From Candidatus Latescibacterota bacterium (GTDB taxonomy: Bacteria > Latescibacterota > UBA2968 > UBA8231), in assembly GCA_965248265.1 (NCBI GenBank), contig CBDFJF010000002.1:1280001-1344000 (forward strand): 64,000 nt of DNA, given 5' to 3'. This document shows, in pieces, positions 43,073-61,400 of the stretch. The position numbers and the translations under genes are program-made. A model generated the notes under the pieces. It had not been told where the DNA came from and ran no database searches. It was given only the letters and a program-made list of their open reading frames with translations. Numbering within the stretch: the first letter of the stretch is position 1; every line of letters begins with the position of its first letter.

Positions 43073-43095
43073 CTGAAAGCATCCTGCGAGGCAGG

Positions 43096-43216
43096 GAGGG
43101 CGTGTTGACGAGGAGGACACGCGTCACGGATTGGTCCTCGACATGATGGAAACGGCCGAGAAAATCTCGGCATCGAGAAGATCGGTCTGGCAACGGAGAA
43201 GAAAGCGGAGGCCTAG
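43096..43216 (+). pseudogene. Degenerate 3' fragment of a third exbD copy
   Basis: EGVLT / DTRHGLVLDMMETAEK / LGIEKIGLATEKKAEA* across shifting frames, matching the C-terminus of the preceding ExbD. Confidence 0.8.
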
Positions 43217-43248
43217 CTAGGGACGCCTGGTCCCCGGGGATTTTAAAA

Positions 43249-43782: not shown

Positions 43783-43823
43783 GGCGTCCAGGCGGAACAC
43801 TATTATCCTAATTGCTAAGGCAG

Positions 43824-43857
43824 AATCAACCTGAAACAGCGGAAATCAACCCGAAAC
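43824..43857 (+). repeat. 14-bp direct repeat with 20-bp period in intergenic region
   Basis: AATCAACCTGAAAC (43824-43837) and AATCAACCCGAAAC (43844-43857). Confidence 0.6.
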
Positions 43858-43963
43858 GAGCAGAAAGGAGGAGACTCGACCGCGGTGCTGATTGTGTCTA
43901 ATTGTGTGGGATGAAGGAAGCGAGTTGTTGTCAGCGATAAAAGAACCCAAGGAGCATGAGAAG

Positions 43964-45955
43964 ATGAAAGTCAAATTGACATTAATGTCCGTGGCCATCC
44001 TCACCCTCTGTGCGTCTCTGACGTACGCGGGGACCGCTGGCTACGAGTTTGTGCGCAGCGAGGATCCGGTGATTCTCGGGATTGATGTGGGGAATGTGAG
44101 CTACAATTTTGACGGCAATGCCGAGGTTCCCTTTACGCTGTCGGGCACCCAAGCAACCGTCTATCTGGCGATTTACACCACCGACCAGGCCACTCCAGGT
44201 GGCTTCGGCGGCCCGGGTAGGCCTGAATGGAATGGCGGCCACGCCCTGCTTCGCGCGCCGGGGATCCCCAACATGGTGAAAGTGGTCGAGTGCGGCCAGT
44301 ATGATGTTGGAGATGGTAGCTGCTTGTGGGATGGCACGGATTGGGCCGGAGACGACGTCGAGCCGGGCGCCTACCGGCTCTATGTTCTGGGCTACGACAA
44401 CATCACCGATGCCAACTGGATTGCCGTTACGGGTGCCGGGTTCCGGAACCGCACCAGCACGGTGAAGGTCTTGCAGGGCCAAGGATATATGCACACCAGC
44501 CCCAACAAGATTGGCAAGGAAAATGAGGGGCCAAGAAACGAGTACACGTATGGCATGGGCGGTGCCTTCACGCTGTATCCGCTCCCACCGGGGAATTGGC
44601 TGGAAGTCGACGACCCATGGGATATGATGGCCCCATTTACAGTTGAATTGCCGGAATACGACTTAGGAGAGAACGACGACGGGAACCCAATAAGGGTCCT
44701 GGGTGGCTCGGCACATGGCGTGGCCATCGATCCTCAAGACTTCTCCAGGAACTGGATGTTCGGCTATAACGGTGTAGGCGCCATCGGCGTTACCGTAGAT
44801 TGGGATTCGCAGACATCCGAGCCCATGGAGGGCTTCGGGGAACCACCGGCTAGCTGGCAGGCGCAGATCGCTCTGGGCGACCATATCAATTTCTTCCACT
44901 CCATACAGTACTGGGATGGCTTCCTGTACATGGGCAACGGGTGGTTGAACGATCCCCCGGCCGCCGGTATCTACGAGCTGGATTCCAGCACGGGCGAAGT
45001 CACCGATGTCATCGACGTCAGTGAGTGGATGGTACGCGAGCAATACGGTCACGACCCGGAAGTTACCGAGTCAACTCTCGCCGCGAGCATGATCAACTGC
45101 ATAGGGATCGATGAGTCAGGGTTCGTCATGTCCGCTGGCGGTTGGGGTCCAAGTTCGCTCAATCAGGTTCCGCTCAAGGTCGACTGGAACGGCGATCTCG
45201 TCTACCAGAACCATACAGGGGACGGCTTCAATGACAACATATGGGCAGGCGAAGCCGCGGCACTGGGTGTTGAGTCTGTGACGGATGGTGAGTCTCATGC
45301 GGTTTCCATATCTCGTGGGGCTATCCCGGGATTCGCCTTCATGACTGAGGCCTCCAAGGGAGACATGGCCCGCCAGCCGGCCTACGGAGCGGTCTACGGC
45401 CCCGATGGCGCCGGGATCTTTCACGCCCAGGGCCCCAATATCCCGCTCACCAATCACGAGGCGACTGGTTCGGGGACGAACATGATCCACGAGCAATCTG
45501 ACTGGGACGGACTCTATATCCTGGTTGCCGAGAAGGCCGTGGGGGAAGAGGATGGTTTTGTTGAGCGGACGGGTGGCCATCAGGTCGCTCATTGGCCGTT
45601 CCGGATCTCGCAGGCTCTGATCGGCACCAACCTCGATGATACGGCGATCGCGGAGGTCCCTTCCGCCGTGACGCCCGAGCAGGTCGAACTGGGTGATGCG
45701 TATCCCAACCCGTTTAACCCAACGACGACGATCGAGTTCGCCGTTCCCACCAATGGCCTTGCGACAGTGACAGTACTGAACACGCAGGGCCAGGTGGTGA
45801 ACACGCTCGTCAACGAGTTTGTGTCAACCGGGACCTACCGTACCACCTGGGATGGCATGAACGCGAACGGTGAGCTGGCTGCCGGCGGTCTGTACTTCTA
45901 CCGCCTGCGGGTCGGTGGCCAAGAGGTGACCAAGAAGATGACGTTCCTCAAGTAA
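43964..45955 (+). CDS. Secreted protein with N-terminal FlgD-like domain and C-terminal FlgD/T9SS type A-like sorting domain
   Basis: Signal peptide MKVKLTLMSVAIL..YA; WDGTDWAGDDVEPGAYRL; C-terminal AYPNPFNPTTTIEF, WDGMNANG, GLYFYRL, KKMTFLK; start ATG 43964. Confidence 0.8.
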   Translation: MKVKLTLMSVAILTLCASLTYAGTAGYEFVRSEDPVILGIDVGNVSYNFDGNAEVPFTLSGTQATVYLAIYTTDQATPGGFGGPGRPEWNGGHALLRAPGIPNMVKVVECGQYDVGDGSCLWDGTDWAGDDVEPGAYRLYVLGYDNITDANWIAVTGAGFRNRTSTVKVLQGQGYMHTSPNKIGKENEGPRNEYTYGMGGAFTLYPLPPGNWLEVDDPWDMMAPFTVELPEYDLGENDDGNPIRVLGGSAHGVAIDPQDFSRNWMFGYNGVGAIGVTVDWDSQTSEPMEGFGEPPASWQAQIALGDHINFFHSIQYWDGFLYMGNGWLNDPPAAGIYELDSSTGEVTDVIDVSEWMVREQYGHDPEVTESTLAASMINCIGIDESGFVMSAGGWGPSSLNQVPLKVDWNGDLVYQNHTGDGFNDNIWAGEAAALGVESVTDGESHAVSISRGAIPGFAFMTEASKGDMARQPAYGAVYGPDGAGIFHAQGPNIPLTNHEATGSGTNMIHEQSDWDGLYILVAEKAVGEEDGFVERTGGHQVAHWPFRISQALIGTNLDDTAIAEVPSAVTPEQVELGDAYPNPFNPTTTIEFAVPTNGLATVTVLNTQGQVVNTLVNEFVSTGTYRTTWDGMNANGELAAGGLYFYRLRVGGQEVTKKMTFLK

Positions 45956-45993: not shown

Positions 45994-46036
45994 GAGGTGG
46001 AGGGGGGCTTGTGTCCCTCCTCCACCTCTTGTTTTC
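45994..46036 (+). terminator. Rho-independent terminator
   Basis: GAGGTGGAGGGGGG / CCCTCCTCCACCTC stem (one G-T pair) followed by TTGTTTTC. Confidence 0.75.
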
Positions 46037-46091: not shown

Positions 46092-48173
46092 ATGACGAAG
46101 CGTAGCCACAAGCAACTCAGCAACATAGCCCTTTGGATTTTTCTTCTCACCCTGCCCACGCCGGTGGCGTCGGAGGTGGTGTGCGAATCTGGGGTGTGCC
46201 AGGAGGGTTCCTGGGCTAGCACGGTATGGTACTACACCGAATTCGAAGCGGATGAGGCGGGGGACGGCGTCATCCGCGTGACGGCGGCGGATGAGCTTGA
46301 TGATCTGTGGTTCAATGGCGACAGGATCAATCTGAGTAGTTTGACGTCCAGAGACTGGACGCAGATCGAAGTTGATGAGATAGAGGTCGAGAACGGCACT
46401 AACGAAATTCTGGTGGCCGTGACCACTCAGGGGACAGGGGGCGGGAGCGGGTTGTTGTTGGAGCTGGAGACCGGCGCGCAGCGGACCGGCACGAAGGTGG
46501 GGAATCGGGAGGGGGCATGGCGGTGGTCCAGCGAGGATCCCGACGAAGTCGAGGTGGACTGGGACGATGCCCAGTTGGTCCAGGCCGGCAGCATGGACCT
46601 GACACAGATAGAGGGGCGTACCGATCTATCGGTTGTGCCTGTGGCGGGTTATCCGGGAGACGTGGACATCGGGACCAAGGACGGAGGGATTACGCTGAGC
46701 TTGATCGACGGTCGGAATCTGGCTCTGGGGCAGCCCTCCAACGTCCTGGAAGCCAACGATGGAGTGTTGACCAGCTCGTGGACGCCCGGTGCGAATGCTC
46801 TCAACAAGCATGTGAGCATGGACCTTCGGGAGGTCCGCAGGGTGAGCCGGGTCCGGGTGATCACCAAGGCACCCCGTAGGTCGGGTAGCTATTTTGTCAA
46901 TTCCCTGAAGGGGTATTCGGTTCAGGTGAGCGAGGACCAGTTCCGGTGGTCGGAGGTGGCGGTTCTGCACGGGATCACGGAGTACGAGGAGACGACGGTC
47001 CGTTTTGAGCCTGCCCTGGCGCGATACATACGGATTGTGGTCGCGGAGATAGACGGGATCAGTGCGCCGGATGTGGCCGAGGTCGAGGTGTATGGTGAAG
47101 CGTACAGTGCCGCCGGGACGTTCGAATCGGAACCCCTGGATCTCGACGAACCCAGCGCGAAGAACATCGGCAAGATTACCTGGCAGGCAGACGTCCCTGA
47201 GGGTACCTCGGTAGCTCTCCAGTTCAGGACTATGGTGGATGCCGTGTGGAGTCCGTGGACGAGGGAATACGCCTATGCGGACAGCAATACCTTCGTCGAG
47301 TCGCCCGAGCCTGCGAGCCAGTTCCAATACCGTGTACAACTGTCGACGAGCGTGGAGGGCGCTACGCCCCGGTTTCGGAGTATCACGGTGGAGTCCTCTG
47401 CCGATGATGTACCCGCCGAATCAGCCTCGGGGCGGATTTCGCCGGTGACCGTGGAGATGGGGACGGATACGACATTTACCTACGATCTAGATTTGGAAAT
47501 CTCAGGGCAGAATAGTGGTGTTGAGCGGCTGATCATCGCGGTTCCGGGGCCGGTGACGCTCGACCCGGTTGCGCCCGTCGACGGGCTGGAAGGCAGTGGC
47601 AGTGTGGTGGAATTGGATAGTGTCAAGGTGACGTCGAGGGGGTTGGAGATTCCCTTCGATCCTCCATTGAAAGACCTGGATGTGCAGTTGTCGATTCATA
47701 TGAGGGCCACGATGTATGCGATAGCTCACTCCTGGAGCGCACAACTACTCGCACTGGATTCGGAGAATCCGCAGAACGTGGTCGAAGATACCCGGGGCGG
47801 GGGATGGTTGGTTTCCGCCCCTCAAGTGTTGGGTCGAGTTTTGCTAGACGCTCAGGCACAGCCCGCCGTTTTCACGCCGAACGGGGATGGCAGAAACGAC
47901 CACGCCACCATCGTTTTCACGCTGGCCAAGGCAGAGGGTGCACCCGTATCGGTTCGGGTTTTCTCTTTGGACGGATCGCTTGTTCGGGAGCTGCACACGG
48001 GTCCACTATCGGCGCGACGGTATGATGGCAGTTCGCAGTCCCCGCCGGGTCGCTGGGATGGAACAGATGCCCACGGAAATGTCGTGCCCCCGGGGATTTA
48101 TCTGTATGAGTTGCTGGTGGAAGCGGATGAAGGGGATGAGCGACGCATGGGCACCGTAGGCCTCGTGTATTAG
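46092..48173 (+). CDS. Secreted multi-beta-sandwich protein with discoidin (F5/8 type C) domain and C-terminal FlgD/CHU_C (type B CTD-like) domain
   Basis: Signal peptide; NLALGQP..ANDG..SSW, YSVQVSED..W, ARYIRI..EVEVYG; VFTPNGDGRND, WDGTDAHG..VPPGIYLY. Confidence 0.8.
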   Translation: MTKRSHKQLSNIALWIFLLTLPTPVASEVVCESGVCQEGSWASTVWYYTEFEADEAGDGVIRVTAADELDDLWFNGDRINLSSLTSRDWTQIEVDEIEVENGTNEILVAVTTQGTGGGSGLLLELETGAQRTGTKVGNREGAWRWSSEDPDEVEVDWDDAQLVQAGSMDLTQIEGRTDLSVVPVAGYPGDVDIGTKDGGITLSLIDGRNLALGQPSNVLEANDGVLTSSWTPGANALNKHVSMDLREVRRVSRVRVITKAPRRSGSYFVNSLKGYSVQVSEDQFRWSEVAVLHGITEYEETTVRFEPALARYIRIVVAEIDGISAPDVAEVEVYGEAYSAAGTFESEPLDLDEPSAKNIGKITWQADVPEGTSVALQFRTMVDAVWSPWTREYAYADSNTFVESPEPASQFQYRVQLSTSVEGATPRFRSITVESSADDVPAESASGRISPVTVEMGTDTTFTYDLDLEISGQNSGVERLIIAVPGPVTLDPVAPVDGLEGSGSVVELDSVKVTSRGLEIPFDPPLKDLDVQLSIHMRATMYAIAHSWSAQLLALDSENPQNVVEDTRGGGWLVSAPQVLGRVLLDAQAQPAVFTPNGDGRNDHATIVFTLAKAEGAPVSVRVFSLDGSLVRELHTGPLSARRYDGSSQSPPGRWDGTDAHGNVVPPGIYLYELLVEADEGDERRMGTVGLVY

Positions 48174-48278: not shown

Positions 48279-51032
48279 GTGCGTTTTCCAAGGCTCTCGA
48301 TCATCGTATGGGTCGTGGCTCTCGCCTCGGGGGCTTCGGGGCAGTTCATCTCCAGGGACTACTACCCCCTGTGGGGGGAGTCGTACGAGAACTATGGATC
48401 GATCGGGTATCAGGATGCGCTGCAGCCGATCCTGGGCGTAGGAGGTTCCGGGACTCGGACGACGAGCCCCGTCAATGGCTTCGCGGTGGAGCTGGAGCGT
48501 CGACAGTACGATCCGTTCGGCAATTACCTGGTGGATGGCCTGGACGTGTTTCGTCTGCAGGAGTTCCGCGGCATCGCGCCGAGCCGGGGGAGTCTTCTCT
48601 TAGAGAGCGATCTGTCAGAAAGACTCTTCCAGAACTTGATGATCGCCAGCGATGAGTTCGGCGGCTGGTCCAATCGCGTCCTCATCGGGCATGCAATACG
48701 CACAAATTTCACCTCACTGACGTTGAGCAGGTCACGGTTCAGCGGGATTCGGTGGGATGGGGCAACCCGGCGCAACCGCTTTACCGTTCTGGGGTCCAGG
48801 ATCTCCAACCCCACCCCACGGTCCGAGGTCACGGGTGCGGAGCTGCATTCGAGCTATCTGTTTGGGGGTCGGTGGGAAAACACCGTCGGAGATCTTATGA
48901 CGATGGGGCTTTCCTACGTGACCACCTTCCGCAGCGACGCTACTCGGCGCAAGGGGGGGCGTATTCAGCGCGGGGTGGTTCCTGTCGATCTGGGGCGAAC
49001 CAGTTCAGATGAGCCGGGTGGGATTGAGGAGCTGTATGTGATCTTCAGTGATGACAGTCCGGAGGATGGGTCTGGCGCACAAGTCCATGGGTTGGAGGTG
49101 TACATCGACGGTGCGCGCGCGCACCTTCAACCCGAGGCGGTGTTGATACCTGAAATCCATTCGTATACGAGGTTGAGTCGGCTAACCGCAAACAAAATGC
49201 CGCTTCGGACTCAGTTCTTGTCCGCCGTGCGCGCCGACGGGACATGGTTGTCTGAAGCACTCAGCCACAACACTAATATAGGTCCTCTCTCGCGTCTGGA
49301 AACGATTCTGAAACAGAGGGGGGCCGACGACAGGACGAAGAATCCACGCCACGGCCCCCCGCCAGAGCCGGTAGCGCTGACCGACGGACAGCCCCTGGAG
49401 GCCAGCGGCACCGATGTGCTGCTGTTCAAGTATCAGATACCTGCGGAGGCACGATCGGTTCAATTCCGGGCTCTGGTGGCAAACGACTACTCGATCGATG
49501 TGGCTACGCGCGTGGGGTACTGGGCGGATTGGCACAATGTCCGGCGTGCGGTGGGCAAGGTGCGCGACCGTTCCAATTTGGGTTGGGTATCCTTCGAGTA
49601 CGGGTTCCCCACGGGCCTGGCGACGTATGGGACAGACGTTGAACTCGATATTCTCGGCGCCGTGGTTCGGGGGGAGGTCGTGAACAACGTGGGGTACTAT
49701 ACCTATCCCGGCATCTCAGGGGCGTGGCACAAGCAGAGCACGCGAGCCTACGTCGTCAACGCTTCACGCCGTTTCTCTAGCGCCCGCGGCGCCGCCCATG
49801 TAGGTGCTGAGCTGTTCGATCTTCCTTCGACCTACAGGACCTCGTTTGAGGCTGTGGATCCGCAATCGCCCAACGCAATCGCGAAGCTCTACGAGCTGGT
49901 CGAGGACAACGATGACCAGGATGAATGGCCGGACGAGGATGAATGGCCGAACAGCTCGGATCGGCGCGACGGGGACGGGATTTTTCCCGGGCTGGACGAG
50001 GATGGCGATGGGATTATCGATACGAACGTCAACGACAACGAGGTGCCGGACTACCAGGAGCCGTTTCTGATGTACTATGTGGATCCGGATGGATATACAT
50101 ACGGCGACGACTTCGACAACAACGGGACGGTGGATGTCCGGCAGGACGACAACCGCCCCGACTACCCCTACAATCTGGATCGGCGCGGACGGCATCTGTT
50201 CGCCCGGCTCGAGCTGACCCCCGCGCTGCAGAATACGGTCGGCTGGTATCGCCTCAGGAGCATCACGGGTGGGGGGCGCAACCGGGTGCTGTATTCGAAG
50301 GCCCGGTACGGGATCAGGCGCGAGGGGTTGGGTAGCATCGATGTGCATTACAAGGTCAAACGGGTGGAGGACGACATACCGGCGGACATCCGGGGAGGGG
50401 ACCTGCAGTTTGTGGGCTTCGACGTGGAGGGTACGATCCAGCCGGATCAGCTGTCCATGCGCAACAGCCTGGTCAACCTGTTGTTCCTGGAGACGAGGTT
50501 CACGGGTATCCCCCATCTGAATGTGTCGTCCAAGTTCCGCTACGAAGTCAATGACCGTCGGCGCGCAGAGTTCAACGACGGGGCGGTTCAGGAGAAGAGT
50601 CGGGATCGATCGCGGGCGCTGGTAACCCGGGCTGACTACGAGTGGAAGCTGGGGCATCTCACCCTCATGCCGATGTTCAAGTTCCTGACCGAGCACAAGA
50701 AAGTACCGTCATCGGGACGGCGTCCGTTTCTGCACACACGTCATCTGATTCCCATCCTCCGGATGGATTACGCATTGACCTCGGGCACTGTATTGCGAGC
50801 GGGAATCCAGGGCTTTCCGATGCTGAAGGAGCAGTTTCGGAATGTCGCCTGGCCTTTCGTCTCGCACGATGCGACGAGTCACGTGCTGCTGTTGCAGAAT
50901 CGCGGGAATTACTCCGGGTATGACGTGCGTCTCAACCTCGGGTTCCTTCGCAAAAGCGTAGATTCTTGGAGCGCACTCAGCCGTCGATCCGAGTCCTCGA
51001 GAGAGGTGTTCCTGCAGCTGTACTTCGAATAG
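48279..51032 (+). CDS. Uncharacterised large exported protein, probable outer-membrane beta-barrel with Asp/Asn-rich Ca-binding-like block (paralogue 1)
   Basis: GTG start with AAGGGAG RBS; signal peptide; amphipathic strands; FPGLDEDGDGIIDTNVNDNEVPDY; ends EVFLQLYFE. Confidence 0.6.
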   Translation: MRFPRLSIIVWVVALASGASGQFISRDYYPLWGESYENYGSIGYQDALQPILGVGGSGTRTTSPVNGFAVELERRQYDPFGNYLVDGLDVFRLQEFRGIAPSRGSLLLESDLSERLFQNLMIASDEFGGWSNRVLIGHAIRTNFTSLTLSRSRFSGIRWDGATRRNRFTVLGSRISNPTPRSEVTGAELHSSYLFGGRWENTVGDLMTMGLSYVTTFRSDATRRKGGRIQRGVVPVDLGRTSSDEPGGIEELYVIFSDDSPEDGSGAQVHGLEVYIDGARAHLQPEAVLIPEIHSYTRLSRLTANKMPLRTQFLSAVRADGTWLSEALSHNTNIGPLSRLETILKQRGADDRTKNPRHGPPPEPVALTDGQPLEASGTDVLLFKYQIPAEARSVQFRALVANDYSIDVATRVGYWADWHNVRRAVGKVRDRSNLGWVSFEYGFPTGLATYGTDVELDILGAVVRGEVVNNVGYYTYPGISGAWHKQSTRAYVVNASRRFSSARGAAHVGAELFDLPSTYRTSFEAVDPQSPNAIAKLYELVEDNDDQDEWPDEDEWPNSSDRRDGDGIFPGLDEDGDGIIDTNVNDNEVPDYQEPFLMYYVDPDGYTYGDDFDNNGTVDVRQDDNRPDYPYNLDRRGRHLFARLELTPALQNTVGWYRLRSITGGGRNRVLYSKARYGIRREGLGSIDVHYKVKRVEDDIPADIRGGDLQFVGFDVEGTIQPDQLSMRNSLVNLLFLETRFTGIPHLNVSSKFRYEVNDRRRAEFNDGAVQEKSRDRSRALVTRADYEWKLGHLTLMPMFKFLTEHKKVPSSGRRPFLHTRHLIPILRMDYALTSGTVLRAGIQGFPMLKEQFRNVAWPFVSHDATSHVLLLQNRGNYSGYDVRLNLGFLRKSVDSWSALSRRSESSREVFLQLYFE

Positions 51033-51084
51033 CGGCTGCGCGCCGAGGCTCGGGCGCGGCCTGCACCATGGGAGTTTCTGGACA

Positions 51085-53985
51085 GTGACGCATAAGAAGG
51101 TGTCTATCCGCAGGGGGTTCTTGTTCAGTGTGTCGCTGCTGAGCGTGGTCCTCCTGTGCGCCAGCGAGGGTGGGGCGCAGCTTGTATCCCGCCGATCCCT
51201 GCTGTCACGGCCGGTCCCGGAGTATGACAACTACGCGCTACAGGGCTATCGGAGAATGGGGCGACAGGAGTTCGATCGCGGCACCGCGCTGGTCTTCGAT
51301 GATTTCGGTAACCTGATCATGGACGGGGCGGAGCTCTACCGGCTGTCCCAGTCCCATCCAATGTTCGACGATCCGACGACGGAACCCCGTGAACCGGGAA
51401 GCAGGCTTCAAAAGAGTTTGCTCTACCACGATTACCTGGCCAGACTGGTGCTCGCCAAGGATACCTACGTCGGATCCAACCAGAGGCTCATCATAGGGGA
51501 TCACATTCGCACCCGCTTTACTTCGTTGACGATGGATATGGCAGCGTTGAACGGGATCCGCTGGGATGGGGATTTCGGGCGGCACGGCTTTTCCCTGGTG
51601 AGCTCCCGGTTGGACAAGCCCATCTACGAACTGGAGGCCATCTTTTCGTACGAAGACAACGTCCATTACGATCAGAGGGTAGAGGAAGTTGGGGGCCTGG
51701 CCCGGAGCTTGTTGGCGGCGTATCTGCTGGGTGGATACGCACAGACCCGGATAGGGATGTTCGATCTCGGGTTGACGTATTTGAATCAGTTCCGCGTGGA
51801 CACCCAGGTGGGACTGGCACAAAACAGCTTGAAGGGCACACTGCCCGTCCATGATCCGGGAGGGATCGGGGTGGCCAGGCGGCCCTCGTTCATCGAATAC
51901 CTGGTGGTCAAGATAGCCGATGAGACCGAGCGGGATGGTCAAGGGGCGCGGGTGTACGATGTGCGCATCTCCCTCAACGGAGTTGAAAGGGACGACATTC
52001 GGCCCGTGATCACGCGCCACGACACGGAGGTCCTCGAGCAAAGCAACCTGGGGGCCAACGCGAACATCGATCAGAACTTCCCCCGCAACCGCACCATCCC
52101 GCCATATGTCGAGTTCATCAGGAGTTCCTTAGCGCCGGAGCCTTTTCTGCCCACGGAGACCGCGGGAGCACAGGGGCTGGAGGCCAGCGGCACGGAGTAC
52201 CTGTTGTACTGGTTCGCCATGCCCGAGGCCGGGACTCGCGAGGTGCACTTCGAGGCGCTGGTGGCCAACGACTACGAGATCAGCGTGTCGGAGGTATACG
52301 TTGCTGGCCTCGTACCGAAGGACCGGCCTCAAGAACGAAACCGGGCAACGTATTTCTACCGGGTTGCCGGATCGTCGGGGCGCGTGACGGACATGAGCAA
52401 TCTGGGGTGGGTGGGGTTCGACTACGGGCGGCAGACGGGGGTCACCGTGACAGGGGTCAACCTGTCGACGGCGGTAGCGGGCTTCCAGTTGAGCGCCGAG
52501 TACAACCTGAACTGGGACTTCAGACAGTACCCCGACCTGGGAGGGCAGTACCACCAGCGCCGGGCGGAGGCGTACTACGTCAATGTGAAAAAGGAGGTGG
52601 GGGGGAACGGTTTCCTGGGAGGAGAGCTGTTCCGTATATCCCCGCACTACACGACGACGCTCTCCATTCAAGACGGGAGTGTCGGGCTCTACGGCGCCGT
52701 GCCCTTTTTCACCGACCTCATCTCCCAGGGCGGGGCGGGGACCGTCGACGACACGCGCAACACCACCATGGAGTTGGACCTCGTGGACGACAACGACGAT
52801 CGCGACGTCTTCCCGGAGAACCACTTCCTGCCGGCATTTGCCGACCGCAACGGTGTGTTCCCCGGACTGGATGGAGATCAGGACGGTCGCCCAGACATCA
52901 ACCAGAACAACAACAGTCTGCCGGACTACCTCGAGCCCTTCTTGCTCTACTATGTCGATCCCGACGATTACGCGTACGGAGACGACATGAACAACAACGG
53001 GGTGATCGACCGCCGCGAGGACGACGACAAGCCCGATTACCCCTACGACAAGGATTCGGAAGGGGTGCACCTGTTCACGGGGGGGCGTTGGGACAACGGG
53101 CTGCAGCTGAGGCTGGGATTGCTCGACATGCGTCAAATCCTGGGTGGGGGGCGCAACTGGATGAGGTATGCCAAGGTGGAGTACAACACCAACGAGCCGT
53201 CGTTGGGCAAGATCCAGGCGGTCAACTTCCTGAAGCGGGTCAAGGACACCATCCCCGACGAACTGAATCGATTCGCCTATGACGACACCTTCGGGCCGTT
53301 TGGGTCGATCACCCCGGTGGGCACCCGCGGGGTGAATCCCGACGATCTGATCGGCATCGGTATCGCGAGGTACCAGGATCGGCCCCTGCGCATGCGCAAC
53401 AGCGTCGTGAATACGACGTTCGTGGAGGGCCGTTTGAAGTGGTTCCCGGGATTCACCGTGCGCTCGAATGCGCAACTGGATCTGAATTTTCAGCGGAAAA
53501 CGGCGTTCCACGAGGCCAACCGAATCCAGGACTGGACCTCGGTGGTCGCGGCTGATTACGTATGGAAGCGGGGGAGCTGGACACTCAGGCCACAGCTGAA
53601 GTACATGGCCCAGAGGACGACGGATCAGAAAAGGGTAGTGCTGCCGGCTCACGAGGTGCACTACTATCCCATTCTGCGGATGGACTACGTGCTGAGTCCG
53701 AAAACCGTGCTGAGGTTTGGTGTGCAGGCGCCAGGTCGCTATCGCGATATGACGAACCATTCGGCTGACTACAGGTCGCAAGACTATCTGGCAATGGTCA
53801 CCAACACCTCCTCATACAGCGGATACGAAATGAGCTTCAATGCAGGCTACCAGCTCAAGCGCCGCCGGATGGACGATCGCAGCCGCGCGATCGAGGACAT
53901 AGACTACTCACTTTTCTTCGTCCGGATGGTTGTCGGGCTGAGGGCCTCGGAGGCGCGGGTGACCGAGGTGACGCGGACTATATAG
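51085..53985 (+). CDS. Uncharacterised probable outer-membrane beta-barrel with Asp/Asn-rich block (paralogue 2)
   Basis: Signal peptide; same ordered motif series; FPGLDGDQDGRPDINQNNNSLPDY. Confidence 0.6.
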   Translation: MTHKKVSIRRGFLFSVSLLSVVLLCASEGGAQLVSRRSLLSRPVPEYDNYALQGYRRMGRQEFDRGTALVFDDFGNLIMDGAELYRLSQSHPMFDDPTTEPREPGSRLQKSLLYHDYLARLVLAKDTYVGSNQRLIIGDHIRTRFTSLTMDMAALNGIRWDGDFGRHGFSLVSSRLDKPIYELEAIFSYEDNVHYDQRVEEVGGLARSLLAAYLLGGYAQTRIGMFDLGLTYLNQFRVDTQVGLAQNSLKGTLPVHDPGGIGVARRPSFIEYLVVKIADETERDGQGARVYDVRISLNGVERDDIRPVITRHDTEVLEQSNLGANANIDQNFPRNRTIPPYVEFIRSSLAPEPFLPTETAGAQGLEASGTEYLLYWFAMPEAGTREVHFEALVANDYEISVSEVYVAGLVPKDRPQERNRATYFYRVAGSSGRVTDMSNLGWVGFDYGRQTGVTVTGVNLSTAVAGFQLSAEYNLNWDFRQYPDLGGQYHQRRAEAYYVNVKKEVGGNGFLGGELFRISPHYTTTLSIQDGSVGLYGAVPFFTDLISQGGAGTVDDTRNTTMELDLVDDNDDRDVFPENHFLPAFADRNGVFPGLDGDQDGRPDINQNNNSLPDYLEPFLLYYVDPDDYAYGDDMNNNGVIDRREDDDKPDYPYDKDSEGVHLFTGGRWDNGLQLRLGLLDMRQILGGGRNWMRYAKVEYNTNEPSLGKIQAVNFLKRVKDTIPDELNRFAYDDTFGPFGSITPVGTRGVNPDDLIGIGIARYQDRPLRMRNSVVNTTFVEGRLKWFPGFTVRSNAQLDLNFQRKTAFHEANRIQDWTSVVAADYVWKRGSWTLRPQLKYMAQRTTDQKRVVLPAHEVHYYPILRMDYVLSPKTVLRFGVQAPGRYRDMTNHSADYRSQDYLAMVTNTSSYSGYEMSFNAGYQLKRRRMDDRSRAIEDIDYSLFFVRMVVGLRASEARVTEVTRTI

Positions 53986-54086
53986 GCCAGAATCATGCAC
54001 TGCATCGTGCGTAAAGGCAAAAGACCGGGGTGCGGCTATCGAGGGGGGCCTGTGTCTCTAGTACCTCGCGGCGCAAGTCCGTTGCC

Positions 54087-54230
54087 GGTTGAGCGCCGAT
54101 CCATCCCGGCTCGCGGCGTGGGACCGAACTCTTGGAGTTCGGCCTCGTCCCTGAGCGCGCTCCGCTCGCCGTATTCCCTAATACGACTCGGTCGCGCGCC
54201 TTGCGAGCCGGGCACCTCGACGTTCAAACC
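54087..54230. repeat. ~144-bp multi-hairpin intergenic element (MITE/REP-like or structured RNA leader)
   Basis: Imperfect terminal IR GGTTGAGCGCCGA/TCGACGTTCAAACC; CCCGGCTCGC/GCGAGCCGGG; CCGAACTC-TTG-GAGTTCGG; CGTATT-CCCT-AATACG. Confidence 0.55.
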
Positions 54231-54231
54231 T

Positions 54232-57177
54232 ATGGCAACGTACTTCCGCCGCGAGGTACTCGCCCTCTATGTGTTGGTGATGACGGTTGCGATGGGGGGG
54301 GAGGCGAGTTGGGTTGAGGCGCAGGGGGAGAACGTGTGGAGGGCGGAGCGTCGGTGGAAGGAGACACCGGCGGTGCCCGCGGTTGTGCCGGATCGGATGT
54401 TTTTGGGAGACCCGGGGGAGGTGTATCAGAACTACGCCTTCACGGGGTATCGGAACTACGACTCGCTGACGGGTCGACCGCCGTGGTCGAACATCTACGA
54501 TCCGCTGGGCAACTTCCTGATCAGCGGTCGGGAATTGGGCTCCTGGACTGGGGAACAGTCCACGGAGGGGGGCATCCGCAGTGGAAACAGTCGTATTCTA
54601 GCTAACCTCGCCAACTTCCACGGGGTTTTGTCCATGGGCGGGCAGACCTATTCGGGATGGGCGAGTAATCTGATCTTTTCGAGGAGCGGTGCGGGGAGTT
54701 TCTGGACCAAGGGGATCATGACGCGGTTCACACCGCTGACGTTGAATCGAGTGGCGCTACAGGGCGCCCGGGGGGACATTCTGAGCCCGTTCGGTGATGC
54801 CCTGAGCCTGGTAGCCTCCTACCAGTATCTGGGCTATACGGGAGGAGTTGGGTTACATGGAGGTGGCGACGATTCGGTGATTCTCCTGGCCGGACACTAT
54901 GAGCGCGAGACGGGGCCGTTGCGGTTGGGCGCCACGTTTGCCAACCTGCACATGTTCGATGTGCGCTATCCGACGACGGACTTGAGGGGGGATCTGCACG
55001 CTTCTCAGGCGATCCCGGCGCTCATCGCGGTGCGGATCTCGGACGATTCGCCGAGCGATGGACGAGGTGGCCCCGTCGTGTCCGGGGTGCAGTTGGTGAT
55101 CAATGGTCAAGCGCGCCCGAATCTGGTTCCGGACCTGGTGCGTCGGGATCTCACGAATACGTTCACGGTGGTCGGGAGGACGGGGGTCGACGGGAATTTC
55201 CGGCCCAGCTTCTACTACGAGCCCTCCGTAGCGCGCAGTACGGGTCCCTATTTGGGGATGGAGAAACCGCTGTATGCCGACTACCTGTATCGGCGGGATC
55301 TCGCGCAGGGAGAGGATGTGTCCGACTTCGCCGACGTAGATCGTCTGGTGAGGTTTATAGAATGGGAAGACCCGAGCCAGGTTCAGCGTGCGGATGGGAC
55401 CGAGTCCCTGGTGTACTACTTCAATCTTGAGGGGCTGACCCACGTGCGCTCCGTGGAGGTGGAGGCGTCGGTGGGCAATGACTACCATATCGAAGTCGCC
55501 GACATCAGTGTGACGGCTCCGAATGACGATAGGTATGATTCCCGCTACAGCGCGCCGTTCTACAAGACGGTGCGTCGTGCCGAGGGCAACGTGCAGGATT
55601 TGTCGAATGCCGAGCGGATACGGTTTCCGATCGGCAATGAGACCGGTCAGTCGGTATGGGGCGTGAACATGGCGCTGGACCTCGTGGGTCTGCGGGTGCG
55701 TGGGGAGTTTGCACAGAGCATCACCTACAGCCGCTACCGGGACGGGGTGCCCGGGGAACAGCTGGACCTCATCGGCACCGACCCGGTGCTCTACGAGGGC
55801 AATGGAGTGCGCCACCACGAGCGGGAACGGGCCGGGTATGTTCAACTCGAGCGGGAGACGCCGCGCTACGGTTTCGGGGGAGAACTGTTTTCCATCGGGC
55901 CCATGTTCAACCAGCGACTGACGAAGAGGCCAGGTGAGGTGGCGATTGGGGGAGGCTTTCCCTACCTGAAGAACAAGACGACCTTCTTCTCTCTTCTCGA
56001 GGACAATGATGATGGGGACGCCAATCCGGAGGGCAAGATCCGAGGTTCGGCCCCCCGTGATCTATCCGTGTTTCCCGGCAACGATGCGGACAACGACGGT
56101 ATCCCTGATACCAACCGCAACCTGAACGGGCTGCCAGATTTTCTGGAGCCTTTCCTGCTCTACGAAGCGGATCCGGATGAATACGTGTACGGTCTGGATT
56201 TCAACAACAACGACGTCGTGGATGAGCGCGAGGACGACCTGAAGGAGGACCTTCCGTATGACCGGGATCTGCGGGGGGCCCATGCTTATGTCCGCTGGAA
56301 GCCATGGACAGGCGCGGAGGCGACAGTGGGCTGGCTGCAATCGCATCAGATTGCCGGCGGAGGCCGCAACGACCAGCGCTACCTCCGACTGCACTATAGC
56401 GAGGTGCATCCCCGGGTGGGAGAATGGCTGATCGAGAACGAGCTGAAGCGGGTGTGGGACGATGTGCCGGATGACGTGTTCAGCTGGACGGCGGCGAACG
56501 CGTCAGTAGACCAAAGATTTCTCAGGACCGATGAGGGGCGATTCGCGTATTTTCCGACGTTCACCCCCGATCCGTTGGACTATCGCAACAGTCTGGCGAA
56601 CCGGTTGCACATATCGGGCACCCTGAAGTGGCTTCCCGGCTGGCGGATCGTCACCCGGCTGAAACTGGAACACAACCGTCAGTATGGGGGGAGCCTCGAG
56701 GACGGTTCGGAGCAGGCCCGGGATCGGATCCGTTCCCTGGCGTGGGTGCAGCAGGCCGACTACACGTGGCACTGGGGGAATTTGACGCTGCAGCCGGCCC
56801 TGAAAGGACTCTGGTTGAAGCGGACCCGGCAGCGGGCAGACCGGGCGTTGATCCACACCGAAACGGTCGTCCCCATCGTCAAGGCCCGCTATGAGCTGTC
56901 TCCGGCGACGGAGGTGAAGGTGGGTTTCCAGGGAGTCCCGGGCTGGTGGTTCGAGGAAACCCACCTGGCCGATCCGCGCAACAGCTTCAAGCGGCGGACG
57001 ACGATGGTCTTCCTCTCCAACATGTCGGATTACTCGGGGTATAAGATTTCCACCAATCTGGGGTTCAAGCAGGACAGGCTGGAGTACGCAGACGAATTCC
57101 GCTTCCTCGAGAGCTTCGACACGACGGAGATCTTCGTGCGCCTGTTCATGGGGTATGGGCAAAACGTACTGTATTAA
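54232..57177 (+). CDS. Uncharacterised probable outer-membrane beta-barrel with Asp/Asn-rich block (paralogue 3)
   Basis: ATG 54232 gives a signal peptide; same motif series; FPGNDADNDGIPDTNRNLNGLPDF; last strand EIFVRLFMGY. Confidence 0.6.
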   Translation: MATYFRREVLALYVLVMTVAMGGEASWVEAQGENVWRAERRWKETPAVPAVVPDRMFLGDPGEVYQNYAFTGYRNYDSLTGRPPWSNIYDPLGNFLISGRELGSWTGEQSTEGGIRSGNSRILANLANFHGVLSMGGQTYSGWASNLIFSRSGAGSFWTKGIMTRFTPLTLNRVALQGARGDILSPFGDALSLVASYQYLGYTGGVGLHGGGDDSVILLAGHYERETGPLRLGATFANLHMFDVRYPTTDLRGDLHASQAIPALIAVRISDDSPSDGRGGPVVSGVQLVINGQARPNLVPDLVRRDLTNTFTVVGRTGVDGNFRPSFYYEPSVARSTGPYLGMEKPLYADYLYRRDLAQGEDVSDFADVDRLVRFIEWEDPSQVQRADGTESLVYYFNLEGLTHVRSVEVEASVGNDYHIEVADISVTAPNDDRYDSRYSAPFYKTVRRAEGNVQDLSNAERIRFPIGNETGQSVWGVNMALDLVGLRVRGEFAQSITYSRYRDGVPGEQLDLIGTDPVLYEGNGVRHHERERAGYVQLERETPRYGFGGELFSIGPMFNQRLTKRPGEVAIGGGFPYLKNKTTFFSLLEDNDDGDANPEGKIRGSAPRDLSVFPGNDADNDGIPDTNRNLNGLPDFLEPFLLYEADPDEYVYGLDFNNNDVVDEREDDLKEDLPYDRDLRGAHAYVRWKPWTGAEATVGWLQSHQIAGGGRNDQRYLRLHYSEVHPRVGEWLIENELKRVWDDVPDDVFSWTAANASVDQRFLRTDEGRFAYFPTFTPDPLDYRNSLANRLHISGTLKWLPGWRIVTRLKLEHNRQYGGSLEDGSEQARDRIRSLAWVQQADYTWHWGNLTLQPALKGLWLKRTRQRADRALIHTETVVPIVKARYELSPATEVKVGFQGVPGWWFEETHLADPRNSFKRRTTMVFLSNMSDYSGYKISTNLGFKQDRLEYADEFRFLESFDTTEIFVRLFMGYGQNVLY

Positions 57178-57196: not shown

Positions 57197-58477
57197 ATGG
57201 CAAAAGGCGATGTGCATCCTTCTGAAAAGCGCGAGTTCTCGGATCCGGCGACGGATGTGCGCGTCATCCAGCTCACGGACCAGCCGTGTGTCAACACGAG
57301 CGCCTATTACAATCAGGAGCAGTTCATCGGTGGGTCAGAGCGATTCGTCTTCATCTCCAACCGCAGCGGTGAAAGTCACCTCTACACGGTGGAGGTGGCT
57401 TCCGGCAAGATCGTGCAACTGACCGACGAGGAGCCCTCGGGCGGCTTCACCGTCGACCCCGAACGCGGCATCGTCTACTTCGGGCGCGATCGGCAGTTTG
57501 TCGCCCTGGATGTGGAGTCGTTGCAGGAGGAAGTGGTAGCCGAGTCACCGGAAGGCTGCGGGCCGATCGGCGGACCGGACCTGTCGTCGTGCGGGCGTTA
57601 TCTCGTCCTCGGCTGTGGCCCGGCGGACAGGAAGAAGAGTTACGACTACCGGTACGGCAGAGAAGCGATGGTGCTCCTGGTCGATGTCGTGGAGAAACGG
57701 CAGGAAGTGGTTTATCATGGGCCGAGCGCGGACAACCAGGCGGCGCCCGACAGCCACCACTTCATCAGTCGCGGCGACCCGTCCTACGTGTGGTTCGGCA
57801 GCTATGCCAGGCTGCAGCCCACCGGCATCAAGACAGCCTGGGTCATGAAAGTCGATCTCGAGCGCCTCAAACCCATACACGACCCGATACTGCTGTTCGA
57901 TCAGCAGCCGTATGACTACATCAACCACTACTACTCAGCGCCCAATGCTCACGTCGAATCGTTTCACTACCAGAACATGGCCTACGACCGGGACGGGATC
58001 CCGATCGCTCAGGAGCAAAAGCTGCCGATGCTTCTCGACATCGATCTGGAACGACGCACGACCAGCCGGTGGGTGTTCCCGGGGCTGGCACCGACGCATT
58101 TCAAGTGCAACAACGCCGACGACATGTGGGCGGGGGATCGGGCCGACCCCGGTTTTCTCTGGCTCGAAGGTCGCGGTGAAGACGGCAGTGCCTATATAGA
58201 TGGAGACGCTGAGAACGCCGATTACTGGTTGCACTACTGGCCTGAATCCAGCGCGCCGAGCTTCCCCGCACACGAGTGGATCGGGGTGTTCCGCAAGCAC
58301 CATTCCTCCTACCTTGAGGTTCGTCCGCTGGTTCGGCACAAGACCACCTGGTGGGAAGGTGTCCATCCGCATCCGGTGTTCTCGCCTGATGATAAATGGA
58401 TTGCATACTGCGCCGGGGAGAAAGAGCGATCTCAGCTCTACCTGGCCGAGGCGGTCTGGCCAAGATGGCTCACGTAG
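57197..58477 (+). CDS. Oligogalacturonate lyase (PL22)-like beta-propeller protein
   Basis: MAKG..DPATDVRVIQLT, YYNQ, FISNRSG..LY, IVQLTD, HPHPVFSPD. Confidence 0.75.
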   Translation: MAKGDVHPSEKREFSDPATDVRVIQLTDQPCVNTSAYYNQEQFIGGSERFVFISNRSGESHLYTVEVASGKIVQLTDEEPSGGFTVDPERGIVYFGRDRQFVALDVESLQEEVVAESPEGCGPIGGPDLSSCGRYLVLGCGPADRKKSYDYRYGREAMVLLVDVVEKRQEVVYHGPSADNQAAPDSHHFISRGDPSYVWFGSYARLQPTGIKTAWVMKVDLERLKPIHDPILLFDQQPYDYINHYYSAPNAHVESFHYQNMAYDRDGIPIAQEQKLPMLLDIDLERRTTSRWVFPGLAPTHFKCNNADDMWAGDRADPGFLWLEGRGEDGSAYIDGDAENADYWLHYWPESSAPSFPAHEWIGVFRKHHSSYLEVRPLVRHKTTWWEGVHPHPVFSPDDKWIAYCAGEKERSQLYLAEAVWPRWLT

Positions 58478-58490: not shown

Positions 58491-61400
58491 TTGATGTCAT
58501 TTGCGTGGATAATCGTGTCGTTGAGTCTGGTGGTTACGGCGTGGACTCGGCATGTGCCGTCCGCGGAGGACGTGCAGGCCTCTTTTCGAAAGGCGCAGCG
58601 CTTCTACGGGGCAGAAGCATACGACCAAGCGGTCGAGCAGTACGAAAAGGTCGGCCAGGTAAGCAGCACGCTGCTCCGCCTCGAACAGGTCACCGTGACG
58701 GTGGGCGATATTACGGCACCGATCACCGAGGCAGCCCTGTACCAGTCGGGCAACGCATACTTCAAGATGGCTCAGGATGCGCGGCGCAAGGTGCACCGGG
58801 CGGAGAGCGCGACGGATCGAGAGAAAGCCGAACGTCAGGCCCAGGCATTCCTGGAACGGTCGGTCGGATTCTTCGAGCGAGTGGAATCCGAGGCCACGGC
58901 TGAGGGATTGCGGGTGCTGGCACAGAGTCGTCTAGTGACGACCTGGTACGAAACGAAGGATTACGAACAGACCATAGCTGAAGCTCAAACGCTCATATCG
59001 AAGTACCCCGACAGCAAGTTCGTGGCAAACGCGATGTACGATATCGCCTGGTCGTACTATGAGCAAGGTGACTACGAGTCCAGCATCCAGGCGTTCGAGG
59101 CGCTGATCCGACATTCCCCTACGGGCTTCCGGGCGGACCGGGCGCAGTTTCAGATCGCGGAATGCTACTATCTCCAGAACGACTATGAGAAGGCCATCAG
59201 TCACTATCAGCAGCTGGTGGACCAGGCCAACGTGTACGGATTGACCGGCCGGGATTTGATGAGGATGCGGCGGGAGAAGCTGGCGGGATTGGTGGACGAG
59301 ACGGCACTGGAGCTGGCCGCCAAGGCGCAGTTGAAGATCGGGGATGGGTATTCGAAGCTGGGGCAGCTCGACAAGGCGACCGAGGCATTCGAGCGGGTGA
59401 TCGAACTGTTCTCGGCGGAAAGGGGCTTCGTCGAAGAGGGTTATCGCCGTCTGGCGGATATGTACTATGAGCAAGGGGATCTCGAGCTGTCCGTGCGTAC
59501 CTACAGGACCGCCATCGACCGGGTACGCGATCGGTTCTTCCAGGCCCGTATGCAGTCTCAAATGGCCCGGCGTTATGCTGACAGCGGACGTTTCGACGAG
59601 GCCATCGAGGAGTATGAGGTCTACATCAAGGGATATGAGGAGGTGGCGGCACGTGCGGGCTTTCCAGTGGACGAGGCGGATTACAATATAGGCAGGGCAT
59701 ACTATGACAAGGGACAACAGGCGCTAGCCGCGAGTCAACGGTCGATGGCCATACCGCATTTCCGTGAGGCGACCGCCCGGTATGAGAGCACGCTGAAGAC
59801 CTATCCCGACACCCGGCTAAAGGTGGACTTGCAGTTCAATATCGCCCTCTGCCAGCAGTTCATGGACGATGCGTCCTCGACGGCCCGGGCCCTGGAGGGA
59901 TTTCAGGGCATCATCAACGACCATCCCGATGACCCACTTGTCGAAAGCTCGCTCTTTCAGATCGCCCGGATATTCTACGACCAAAAAGAGTACGCCAGGG
60001 CTGTGGAGATTTACGGTGAATTGCTCCAGCGATTCCCCGATTCGCCCCAGGCGTCGATGGTGCATTTCGAACGGGGTATCTGCCGGCGGGACCAGGGAGA
60101 GCAGGACAAGGCGCTCGAGGCATTCCTGATGGTGCTGCCCGAATCGCCGCTGTTTGCCGATGCGCGCGTGACCGCCGGGGAAATCCTGATCCGCCAGGGG
60201 GAGTTTGTCCGCGCGTTGGAGATCATTGACGAAGCGCTGGCCTTTCAAGTCACGCCCGAGGTGCCCATACGCTATCTGTACATCAAGGCCAAAGCCTTTA
60301 CCGGAGAGATGGCCTACGAAGAGGCTGCGGGGGCGTTCACGGGCATCATCGAAGGGGCGAAGGATCAGCCCCAGTTGGTGGAGAGTTCGCTCTATGCCAG
60401 GGGAACCGCCCTGCTGAGCTTGGGGCGACATGGAGAAGCCGACCGAGACTTCGAGCGTGTCGTAGACGAGGCGGATGACCCCGTGATGCAACGGGCAGCC
60501 CGTCGGATGCTGGGGATGTCCCTGATTCAACAGGGGCGTGAACTAGAGGCCAGCACCAACTACGAGACCCTGGCCGCCAATGCCACTGATGTGCAGGAGA
60601 AGGCGGAATATCTCCTTCTGTTGGCCGAGCTCTATCACGGGCTCAAGACCTACGATCGCGTCGTGCGGATCTGCAGCGATATCGTGGCCATCGCTTCAGA
60701 TGAGAGCCTGCAGGGAGGTGATTCGATCCAGGAGAAGGCGCTTTTTCTGCTCGGGGACGCGCATAGTCGCATGGAGGAGCATGCCGCCGTTACAGACACG
60801 TTCAGAGAAGCTCTGAGGCGCTACCCGGACTCCATATACGCGCCGGACATGACCTTTGTGCTGGGGCTGAGCCTCATGCAATCGGGGCGGCGAGAGCAGG
60901 CGGCGCTCGAGCTCGAGCGTTTCCTTGAGCGCTATGAGGGCGATGCCAATACGGCGCATGCGCTATACTACCTGGGACATATCCGGTTTGGTCACAGGGA
61001 GTTCGCGCCCGCCATACGTGTGTTCGAGCGGCTGGTTGCGGAGTTTCCCCAACACGAGGCGGCGGCTGATGTCTGGTTCAGAATCGGGGAAAGCTACTTC
61101 AACCTGGAGCAATATGAGCAGGCGTTGAACGCATATGGAAGCGTCGTCGACGACTGGCCCGGGCCGGAGCAGGACGACGCGTTGTATAACAGCGCCTGGG
61201 TGTACATGGAATTGAACCGCGGAGAAGAAGCGGCAGCCACTCTAGGCCGGCTGCTCACGGAGTTTCCCGACAGCGAACTGGCTCCCAACGCCCAATTTAC
61301 CATCGGAGACTACCATTACAACGAAGGGCAGTATGAGCAGGCCCTGGATGCCTATCAGGGGCTCATGAAGGACCATCCCGACGCTGAGGTTGCGGCGGAA

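Follow-up and report, generated by a model that had tools for sequence, protein, structure and literature searches.

Why does a bacterium of the phylum Candidatus Latescibacterota carry three large tandem genes that no family model recognises, directly behind a gene for a predicted secreted protein? The genes, P1, P2 and P3, lie on the plus strand of a 64,000-nucleotide stretch of one genome (contig CBDFJF010000002.1, positions 1,280,001 to 1,344,000), called the window here, and an earlier reading of the letters alone, the original prediction, had described them as paralogues of an unrecognised barrel family. The main clue to their function is that such barrels are paired, in a conserved manner, with genes for type IX secretion system (T9SS) cargo. 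It is suggested here, at somewhat less than an even chance, that the barrels are cognate outer-membrane carriers and/or anchors of the cargo encoded upstream of them, analogues of the PorP/SprF proteins to which they would be structurally unrelated.

P1, P2 and P3 are 33-37% identical to one another over their whole length (about 900 residues), and they score 890, 1140 and 805 bits, respectively, against a profile of an 80-sequence family alignment; judged from sequence, the similarity is far above chance. All motifs that the original prediction had listed for three tandem paralogues are invariant columns of a three-way alignment, in the order stated there (Y67, N69, Y70, G74, Y75; D109, G112, N113, G118; T173, F175, T176, L178, T179; D289, D294, G295, G297; A406, G408, T409, L412; A429, V431, N433, D434, Y435, I437; G457, V459, D461, S463, N464; G540, E542, L543, F544; D574, N575, D576, D577, D579, P582; F600...Y662; G695-N699; K725, R726, V727, D729, P732; R759, N760, S761; A816, D817, Y818, W820; Y909, S910, G911, Y912). 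The family also proved to be unrecognised by Pfam and NCBIfam, the sole match being SlpA_C (PF21620) on P2, at 19.8 bits against a gathering cut-off of 35, with none on P1 or P3. A relationship to SlpA_C was rejected since P2 falls below the cut-off and a genome-wide search gave no match; Deinococcus and Thermus controls were matched. Scans of P1-P3 at E <= 0.01 gave no Plug (PF07715) or TonB_dep_Rec (PF00593) match in Pfam, a library that did detect a true TonB-dependent receptor elsewhere in the genome (L017:12478-15399). Pfam and NCBIfam scans likewise gave no LptD match (OstA/LptD beta-jellyroll, LptD C-terminal barrel) and no PorP/SprF match (TIGR03519, PF11751). The protein Atlas gave 30 clusters, all "hypothetical"; the nearest cluster with a name, the TonB-receptor-like DUF6029 (0.89), is no more than a lead and was not confirmed by Pfam. 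A word-indexed search returned 129 relatives, and those few with names are called "hypothetical protein"; a precomputed PF21620 match is attached to 4 of the 120 relatives listed. HMMER, run in full against 1.84 billion cluster representatives, matched 727 clusters at E <= 0.001, 228 of them at E <= 1e-30. Searched against PDB sequences, the family-alignment profile gave chance-level matches only, the best being a restriction-enzyme subunit (E 0.024).

In the genome of the window, which measures 7.32 Mb in 2 contigs and is 92% complete, there are 18 full-length barrel copies and one weak fragment-like match. A further 74 related loci are by their labels mostly from Ca. Latescibacterota, and a few come from metagenome-assembled genomes labelled Gemmatimonadota, Bacteroidota, Ignavibacteriota, Thermokryptus, Zipacnadia, Myxococcales or Chloroflexota, labels which may be wrong. 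The barrel family is present in 71 of 121 genomes that sample the phylum Latescibacterota evenly. All 40 genomes of the window's taxonomic family have it, and it is absent from the 29 and 13 genomes of two sister families of the same class. The A family, named after the secreted protein A encoded just before P1, also occurs in 71 of the 121 genomes. Both families are found in 70 genomes and neither in 49, and each occurs alone in a single genome (75% and 68% complete); this co-occurrence is a pattern with no statistic attached, as related genomes are not independent.

Annotation of the neighbours of the other 15 copies in the genome revealed a recurring cassette that consists of an A protein (700-1160 aa, bearing F5/8 type C and C-terminal sorting domains), one or two relatives of the window's secreted protein B (600-780 aa), the barrel and a SurA/PpiD-like parvulin isomerase (560-600 aa). 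Often nearby are tetratricopeptide repeat (TPR), FG-GAP/ASPIC, PMT_2-TPR and DUF6785/DUF6784 proteins. The surroundings of the barrel genes, up to a distance of 10 kb, make up 4.0% of the genome; by counts made with local hidden Markov models they hold 26 of 36 A family genes, 7 of 8 SurA-like isomerases (>400 bits), 11 of 37 DUF6785 genes and 6 of 39 FG-GAP/ASPIC genes. The eight strong isomerases are double-parvulin proteins, several with lipoprotein-like signal peptides (e.g. L013:16573-18309, L019:12771-14516, L023:6318-8015). The DUF6785/DUF6784 proteins have 8-14 hydrophobic segments and are polytopic membrane proteins (e.g. L122:5162-7120, L013:166-2103, L025:12377-14308); one of their genes lies about 3 kb past the window end. 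The bias extends to the sorting motif. The strict pattern [FYVIL][TS]PN[GND]DG.N[DE] occurs in the last 140 residues of 23 open reading frames (ORFs); for 18 of them the distance to one of the 18 barrel genes is at most 10 kb, and for 10 it is at most 50 nt. With a relaxed motif the count is 22 of 27 within 10 kb. The type A motif PNPF[NS]P has no such bias (5 of 34 ORFs). As a separate observation, 8 of the 18 barrel genes are gathered in an 87-kb stretch (C2:2104000-2191000) that also carries genes for PMT_2-TPR glycosyltransferase-like, spermine-synthase-like membrane fusion and FG-GAP/ASPIC proteins.

The pairing is also seen outside this genome. In the 74 loci the usual order is B-B-A-barrel-isomerase. 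Upstream sequence of 2.5 kb or more is available for 66 barrel arrays of other genomes (55 single, 5 double, 6 triple), and in 54 of these a gene of the A or B family ends within 1.5 kb upstream on the same strand. Of 64 genes that lie immediately 5' of a barrel, 41 have the strict motif and 55 the relaxed one; loci labelled Ignavibacteriota and Bacteroidota are among them. Within the window's subfamily, a homologue of the 1082-aa TPR protein follows directly 3' of the barrel or barrels in many other genomes (e.g. L027, L033, L040, L049, L055), usually with a DUF4159 gene after it; the same TPR/DUF4159 arrangement occurs in loci labelled Bacteroidota, Ignavibacterium, Thermokryptus and Zipacnadia.

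Is the secretion system itself present? SprA is found in the window's genome as one 2090-aa frame (297 + 277 bits), together with three PorU copies over the cut-off, dozens of ORFs bearing a C-terminal sorting domain (CTD) and a PorV-like gene (156 bits) beside one PorU. PorP/SprF gave no genome-wide match with TIGR03519 or PF11751; PF11751 gave weak single matches in 2 of 5 other barrel-carrying genomes. The CTDs of the cassette proteins start with (F/L/I)(T/S)PNGDGxND, and the N-terminal part of the type B model TIGR04131 aligns there. This model matches 17 of 23 cassette tails at E <= 0.01. From the motif and these matches, which mostly stay below the curated cut-off, the cassette CTDs resemble type B. 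A study on Flavobacterium johnsoniae reports that type B substrates do not use PorV and require a cognate PorP/SprF-like outer-membrane protein, whose gene commonly lies directly downstream of the substrate gene (PMC12618676). An extended T9SS translocon that combines a barrel, a prolyl isomerase and a TPR lipoprotein is described in another source (PMC10994853); its composition is at most a loose parallel to the cassette content and is not counted as evidence.

The carrier or anchor role is ranked first because the gene order is that of the Flavobacterium type B pairs and the genome has no PorP/SprF match. The cargo would be multi-beta-sandwich, lectin-domain surface proteins with an FTPNGDGxND CTD, and they would cross the outer membrane through the SprA translocon. 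Each would then be taken over from SprA by its own barrel, which would hold it at the surface, so that a much larger and different barrel would fill the PorP/SprF role. Each barrel protein has a probable signal peptide, an N-terminal segment that is conserved but not well modelled, an insertion rich in beta structure and a very conserved loop module rich in Asp and Asn. The helper may be the cassette-specific SurA-like prolyl isomerase or, in the window's subfamily, the TPR protein of about 1080 aa and the DUF4159 membrane protein.

Several points weigh against this proposal. Binding of cargo by a barrel is proposed on indirect grounds, and the analogy to PorP/SprF is drawn from gene order alone because the barrels are about three times larger and have no sequence relation to those proteins. 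Twelve of the 66 arrays have no upstream cargo gene. The type-B-like assignment is itself open to objection: only 1 of the 23 cassette tails is over the curated cut-off of TIGR04131 and 6 of them also pass the type A cut-off. The model matches none of 20 tails from elsewhere in the genome, but this result is partly by construction as those tails were picked by likeness to PorU's own type A domain; the motif counts given above are free of this bias. Gene B of the window carries a plain type A domain. The predicted 22-24 strands are more than an anchor needs, and the enrichment of polytopic DUF6785/DUF6784 proteins near the barrels is a better fit to uptake. Finally, both recent duplicates of P3 stand alone, one of them beside a TonB-dependent receptor, a sulfatase and a GH123-like gene. 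A complex prediction that paired P1 (residues 23-917) with the C-terminal 104 residues of protein A returned no answer (score 0.00, no controls) and weighs neither way.

That the three proteins belong to the outer-membrane beta-barrel class is predicted from their N-termini, each of which appears to have a signal-peptide-like segment that ends in A-Q, and from a structural model. AlphaFold2 (AF2), run on P2 with the 80-sequence alignment, gave a mean predicted local distance difference test score (pLDDT) of 80.6 and a predicted template modelling score (pTM) of 0.83. How many strands there are, whether the barrel is closed, what its lumen holds and on which side the inserts lie are all judged from the DSSP string of this model. 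Residues 105-952, approximately, form a run of long antiparallel strands joined alternately by turns of 2-5 residues and by long loops. Counted back from the C-terminus there are about 24 strands, stated as 22-24 because two short N-terminal strands are uncertain. The long connections (176-209, 240-448, 519-657 and 722-771) are all on one face. In outer-membrane barrels the short turns and the C-terminus are periplasmic, and by this rule the long-loop face is that of the cell surface; the inserts and the Asp/Asn block would then be surface exposed. One connection is the beta-rich insertion listed in Table 1. The original prediction of an inserted beta-sandwich is consistent with this insertion, which is read as beta-rich from the DSSP string. 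The model has low confidence over residues 33-104, where the conserved motifs YxNYxxxGY and DxxGNxLxxG lie.

Fold searches with the P2 model agree on a barrel. The best 37 Foldseek rows listed, including all 25 with E <= 0.001, are outer-membrane barrels, with query template modelling (TM) scores of at most 0.26. The SlpA complexes 8agd, 7zgx and 8ae1 lead (E 1e-8 to 2e-7), with MtrB (about 1e-8) and LptD (about 1e-8 to 5e-6), followed by porins; the LptD match is generic (TM 0.15). VIA, an aligner independent of Foldseek, returned only membrane beta-barrels among the 50 matches listed, from bacterial outer membranes or from organelles (SAM50, Tom40, TOC); the highest Z is 13.6. Its longest alignment is to SlpA (410 residues, Z 12.3), and many unrelated barrels reach Z 12-13.6. 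The word barrel in the original prediction is upheld by the pTM of 0.83 and by these matches, and structure prediction with fold search gave neither a soluble fold nor a full-length close match to a characterised receptor family.

The prominence of SlpA raises the question of whether the barrels are an envelope scaffold. They might form an abundant structural complex, perhaps a P1-P2-P3 trimer, that is linked to the periplasm via the N-terminal segment, TPR and DUF4159 proteins and carries a surface-protein coat, loosely like SlpA of Deinococcus. SlpA of Deinococcus radiodurans is a 30-strand homotrimer, and the likeness consists of a very large barrel, the best Foldseek E-values, the longest structural alignment and a weak sequence match on one strand region, to which the scattered PF21620 matches among the listed homologues can be added. 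The conserved order of the trio and the TPR and DUF4159 genes that follow the barrel across phyla also fit a scaffold. The query TM to SlpA is only 0.18, however, with about 22-24 strands in the window barrels, SlpA_C stays below its cut-off and is not matched genome-wide, and there is no SLH domain and no N-terminal coiled-coil region. In addition, 18 divergent copies with matching divergent partners look like specificity and not bulk structure. A scaffold is considered improbable.

The same model bears on a second alternative, in which the protein encoded upstream would leave through its own barrel as a dedicated outer-membrane pore, two-partner-like or usher-like and independent of SprA, with the SurA-like isomerase or the TPR protein as periplasmic chaperone. 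A beta-rich domain inserted after about the sixth or seventh strand recalls the plug of ushers, which sits at that position, FimD is matched at Z 9.9 over 320 residues, and the order of cargo, barrel and chaperone genes is tight. Yet P1-P3 have no POTRA, usher or TpsB family matches, and by a parity count the inserts are on the long-loop face and not in the periplasm. A sorting domain of T9SS type can be recognised in the cargo, and SprA, PorU and a PorV-like gene are present in the genome. A dedicated export pore is the least probable of the explanations weighed here, with very little credence.

Nutrient uptake, the main rival of the carrier or anchor role, deserves more weight, and it is judged unlikely but well worth consideration. 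The barrel would be a TonB-independent functional analogue of SusC, the lectin-domain A and B proteins on the surface would catch polymer, and the barrel would pass oligomers inward for DUF6785/DUF6784 or ABC transporters to move through the inner membrane. With their high number in a genome, the cassettes would correspond to the polysaccharide utilization loci (PULs) of Bacteroidota. SusC-like transporters are alike in that a large barrel is coupled genetically to surface-exposed binding proteins in many paralogous cassettes, and BT1762 is matched at Z 9.8 over 359 residues. Such a system would suit a large barrel in 18 copies, F5/8 type C domains (CBM32-like) in the A proteins and the crowding of DUF6785/DUF6784 genes, for whose products 8-14 membrane helices are predicted. 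It would also suit the FG-GAP/ASPIC genes and the one SBP_bac_5/ABC permease pair found inside cassettes. Sugar porins are among the best VIA matches (maltoporin, Z 13.6; CymA, 13.0; ScrY, 12.8; chitoporin, 12.7), but these matches span the C-terminal half only and are generic, as BamA, TamA and Occ porins tie with them. P1-P3 differ from SusC in having no match to a Plug domain, a TonB-box-type family or TonB_dep_Rec, their partners are T9SS cargo and not SusD-like lipoproteins, and the annotated cassettes are nearly free of glycoside hydrolases, lyases and peptidases. Uptake also leaves the type-B-like CTD class of the partner unexplained. A carrier or anchor role and SusC-like uptake are not mutually exclusive. 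If uptake were the true function, this would be a new PUL-like system and would bear on polymer use by these marine and sediment bacteria.

The most conserved part of the barrels is the Asp/Asn block, which is found in all three at the coordinates of the original prediction, with translations that agree. Its content of D, N and E is 39-43%, and 11 of the 25 invariant columns of the 80-sequence alignment fall inside P2 residues 566-657, about 9% of the protein. That the block is the most conserved part suggests a role central to function and not that of a mere stabiliser. An EF-hand loop has 12 residues, with D, N or S at positions 1, 3 and 5, G at 6, a hydrophobic residue at 8 and an acidic one at 12. 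The loops of the P2 block read DDNDDxD, DxDxDGxxD and the EF-hand-like DxNxNGxIDxxE, and the model has nearly no secondary structure there. A 12-residue EF-hand-like loop occurs at the homologous place in 70 of 88 family members, P2 and P3 among them but not P1, compared with 39 of 1760 shuffled sequences. The likeness to EF-hand and thrombospondin type 3 loops lies in DxDxDGxxD and DxNxNGxIDxxE at conserved positions, where invariant residues fall on the Ca2+-coordinating positions; the block differs in that it has no flanking helices, is embedded in a barrel loop and matches no family model. Pfam searches of the three blocks at E up to 10 found no EF-hand, TSP_3 or dockerin, the single match being DUF7151 on the P3 block at chance level (E 6.6), and PDB sequences gave no match at E up to 10. 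Of the original prediction of a Ca2+-binding loop, the motif part thus holds, while no family model or PDB match backs it. Judged by its motifs, the module probably holds two or three Ca2+ ions on the surface face.

Why are there three barrels in a row? A FastTree phylogeny of 66 barrels (midpoint rooting, SH-like supports only and no bootstrap; long-branch warnings concern other rows) places P1, P2 and P3 in three separate clades, each with 100% support. In eight other loci (L026, L027, L028, L032, L033, L034, L039 and L040), the first, second and third genes of the arrays fall into the corresponding clades, and the triplication is therefore old and its order is kept. The three are old orthologous lineages that probably work as a set. 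Thirteen other copies of the genome form a distinct deep clade of the single-barrel cassette type. The two recent P3 duplicates, which have no P1 or P2 partners, are at G000:C2:575896-578889 and G000:C2:2730322-2733357 and have branch lengths of 0.10-0.15. One has the neighbours named above; the other adjoins a DUF6785 gene and an IS110 transposase.

How far does the parallel to PorP/SprF go? The T9SS core is present, the barrel gene lies directly downstream of a gene with a type-B-like CTD and there are many cognate pairs per genome. PorP/SprF proteins have about 300 aa; the window barrels have about 900, with extra inserts and the Asp/Asn block, and no sequence match. They also sit in cassettes with a SurA-like isomerase or TPR/DUF4159 genes, occur mainly in Ca. 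Latescibacterota and not in Bacteroidota, and would share the carrier function by analogy. An outer-membrane barrel coupled to T9SS cargo is thus a known kind of protein, and the family, its size and its architecture have not been described before. None of the papers searched joins Latescibacter* with T9SS or "type IX", and among the matches listed for Latescibacter* and "outer membrane protein", as far as their consulted parts go, none concerns the barrel. Of the papers searched, only the 2015 Pfam paper names DUF4159, DUF6785 or DUF6784. A bolder and more tentative proposal is that these barrels are an unrecognised class of T9SS carrier or anchor outside Bacteroidota, in Ca. Latescibacterota and some Ignavibacteriota-type lineages. 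In that class a Ca2+-loaded barrel of about 900 residues would take the PorP/SprF role in a dozen or more cargo-specific cassettes, each with its own periplasmic helper, and P1-P2-P3 would assemble into a hetero-oligomeric platform on the surface. Almost all that is established about T9SS biology comes from Bacteroidota and the handling of type B cargo is still being settled, and an unannotated barrel family that is large and abundant and goes with type-B-like cargo at the level of single genes is a candidate for the missing partner in an uncultured phylum. The family would explain a sizeable share of the "hypothetical" envelope genes of these genomes, and the Asp/Asn block could define it in a possible Pfam or NCBIfam model.

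Table 1. Features of the P1-P2-P3 gene row, in window coordinates
Feature	Position	Strand	Remarks
Secreted protein B	43892-45955	+	687-aa ORF; likely start at the MKVKL methionine, about 43964
Terminator-like hairpin between B and A	45994-46028	+	14-bp stem, 10 G-C pairs, T-rich tail; by consensus pattern scan only
Secreted protein A	46092-48173	+	693 aa; signal peptide, beta-sandwich domains, F5/8 type C (discoidin) domain, C-terminal sorting domain
Barrel paralogue P1	48279-51032	+	917 aa from GTG 48279; ORF opens at 48186
Asp/Asn block of P1	49899-50171	+	third loop has Q where the EF-hand pattern needs D/E (position 12)
Barrel paralogue P2	51085-53985	+	966 aa from GTG 51085; structure-modelled copy
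Beta-rich insertion of P2	51802-52428	+	residues about 240-448; between two barrel strands on the long-loop face; about ten strands; pLDDT >90 for most
Asp/Asn block of P2	52783-53046	+	residues 566-657; three D/N loops
Barrel paralogue P3	54232-57177	+	981 aa from ATG 54232; ORF opens at 53995
Asp/Asn block of P3	55996-56259	+	
426-aa protein	57197-58477	+	weak beta-propeller-type matches: oligogalacturonate-lyase-like N-terminus, PD40
TPR protein	58491-61739	+	1082 aa; YbgF/BamD-type repeats
DUF4159 protein	62794-63948	+	N-terminal membrane anchor; kept beside the TPR gene

The barrels are part of a tightly packed row of plus-strand genes that spans from about 43.9 kb to the window end (Table 1). 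The GTG and ATG codons given for P1, P2 and P3 are the likely true starts. Only 13 nt separate the end of the protein A gene from the P1 ORF, and the intergenic gaps of A, P1, P2, P3 and the next two genes are 9-250 nt. The terminator consensus scan that found the hairpin between B and A found no such site in these gaps.

Protein A matches F5_F8_type_C (42 bits) and CHU_C (26.7 bits) in Pfam. Its sorting domain motif, VFTPNGDGRND, is type-B-like; TIGR04131 gives 22 bits (E 1.2e-4), below the cut-off, and there is no type A match. An AF2 model (pLDDT 77.6) is all-beta, with a string of beta-sandwiches, the discoidin domain and a C-terminal sandwich, and Foldseek returned only generic beta-sandwich or discoidin matches (galactose oxidase, complement MG domains) at query TM up to 0.16. 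Protein B has FlgD-Ig-like domains (Pfam FlgD_ig 48 bits, Por_Secre_tail 26 bits), and TIGR04183 scores its type A sorting domain at 34-39 bits against a cut-off of 23. Orthologues of B are found at the equivalent position in loci L028 and L032. The 426-aa protein behind P3 has no homologue among the ORFs of the 74 loci from other genomes. The TPR protein had been considered as the genome's PorW/SprE; this was dropped, as the best PorW-like match lies elsewhere and the TPR models cross-match 12 of 14 control genomes.

Parts of the genes for B, P1, P2, P3 and the TPR protein are covered by contigs that are 95-99% alike and come from metatranscriptome libraries (3 libraries, 3 studies). The contigs are a weak hint of expression and do not prove transcription, and the parts that are uncovered carry no meaning. 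One of these contigs (run X3) joins window position 56219, in the P3 acidic block, to 50146, in the P1 acidic block, with 14 other letters between; the likeliest source is a related paralogue, or else a chimeric assembly over the conserved block.

Past the window end, the DUF4159 gene is followed by a gene for a right-handed beta-helix (NosD-like) protein (L122:1946-3703), and beyond it are genes for Recep_L/LRR, FG-GAP/ASPIC and TPR proteins. On the other side of the row there is a long non-coding stretch before gene B, and the G+C content at 42001-44000 is 0.546 compared with about 0.60 elsewhere; the GC skew is positive from there to the window end. Further upstream, on the minus strand, positions 37127-41914 encode a 1595-aa fusion of unusual architecture, with an M28-type peptidase region and MacB-like periplasmic and FtsX permease domains, and positions 34231-37077 a 948-aa membrane protein of the UPF0182 family (961 bits).

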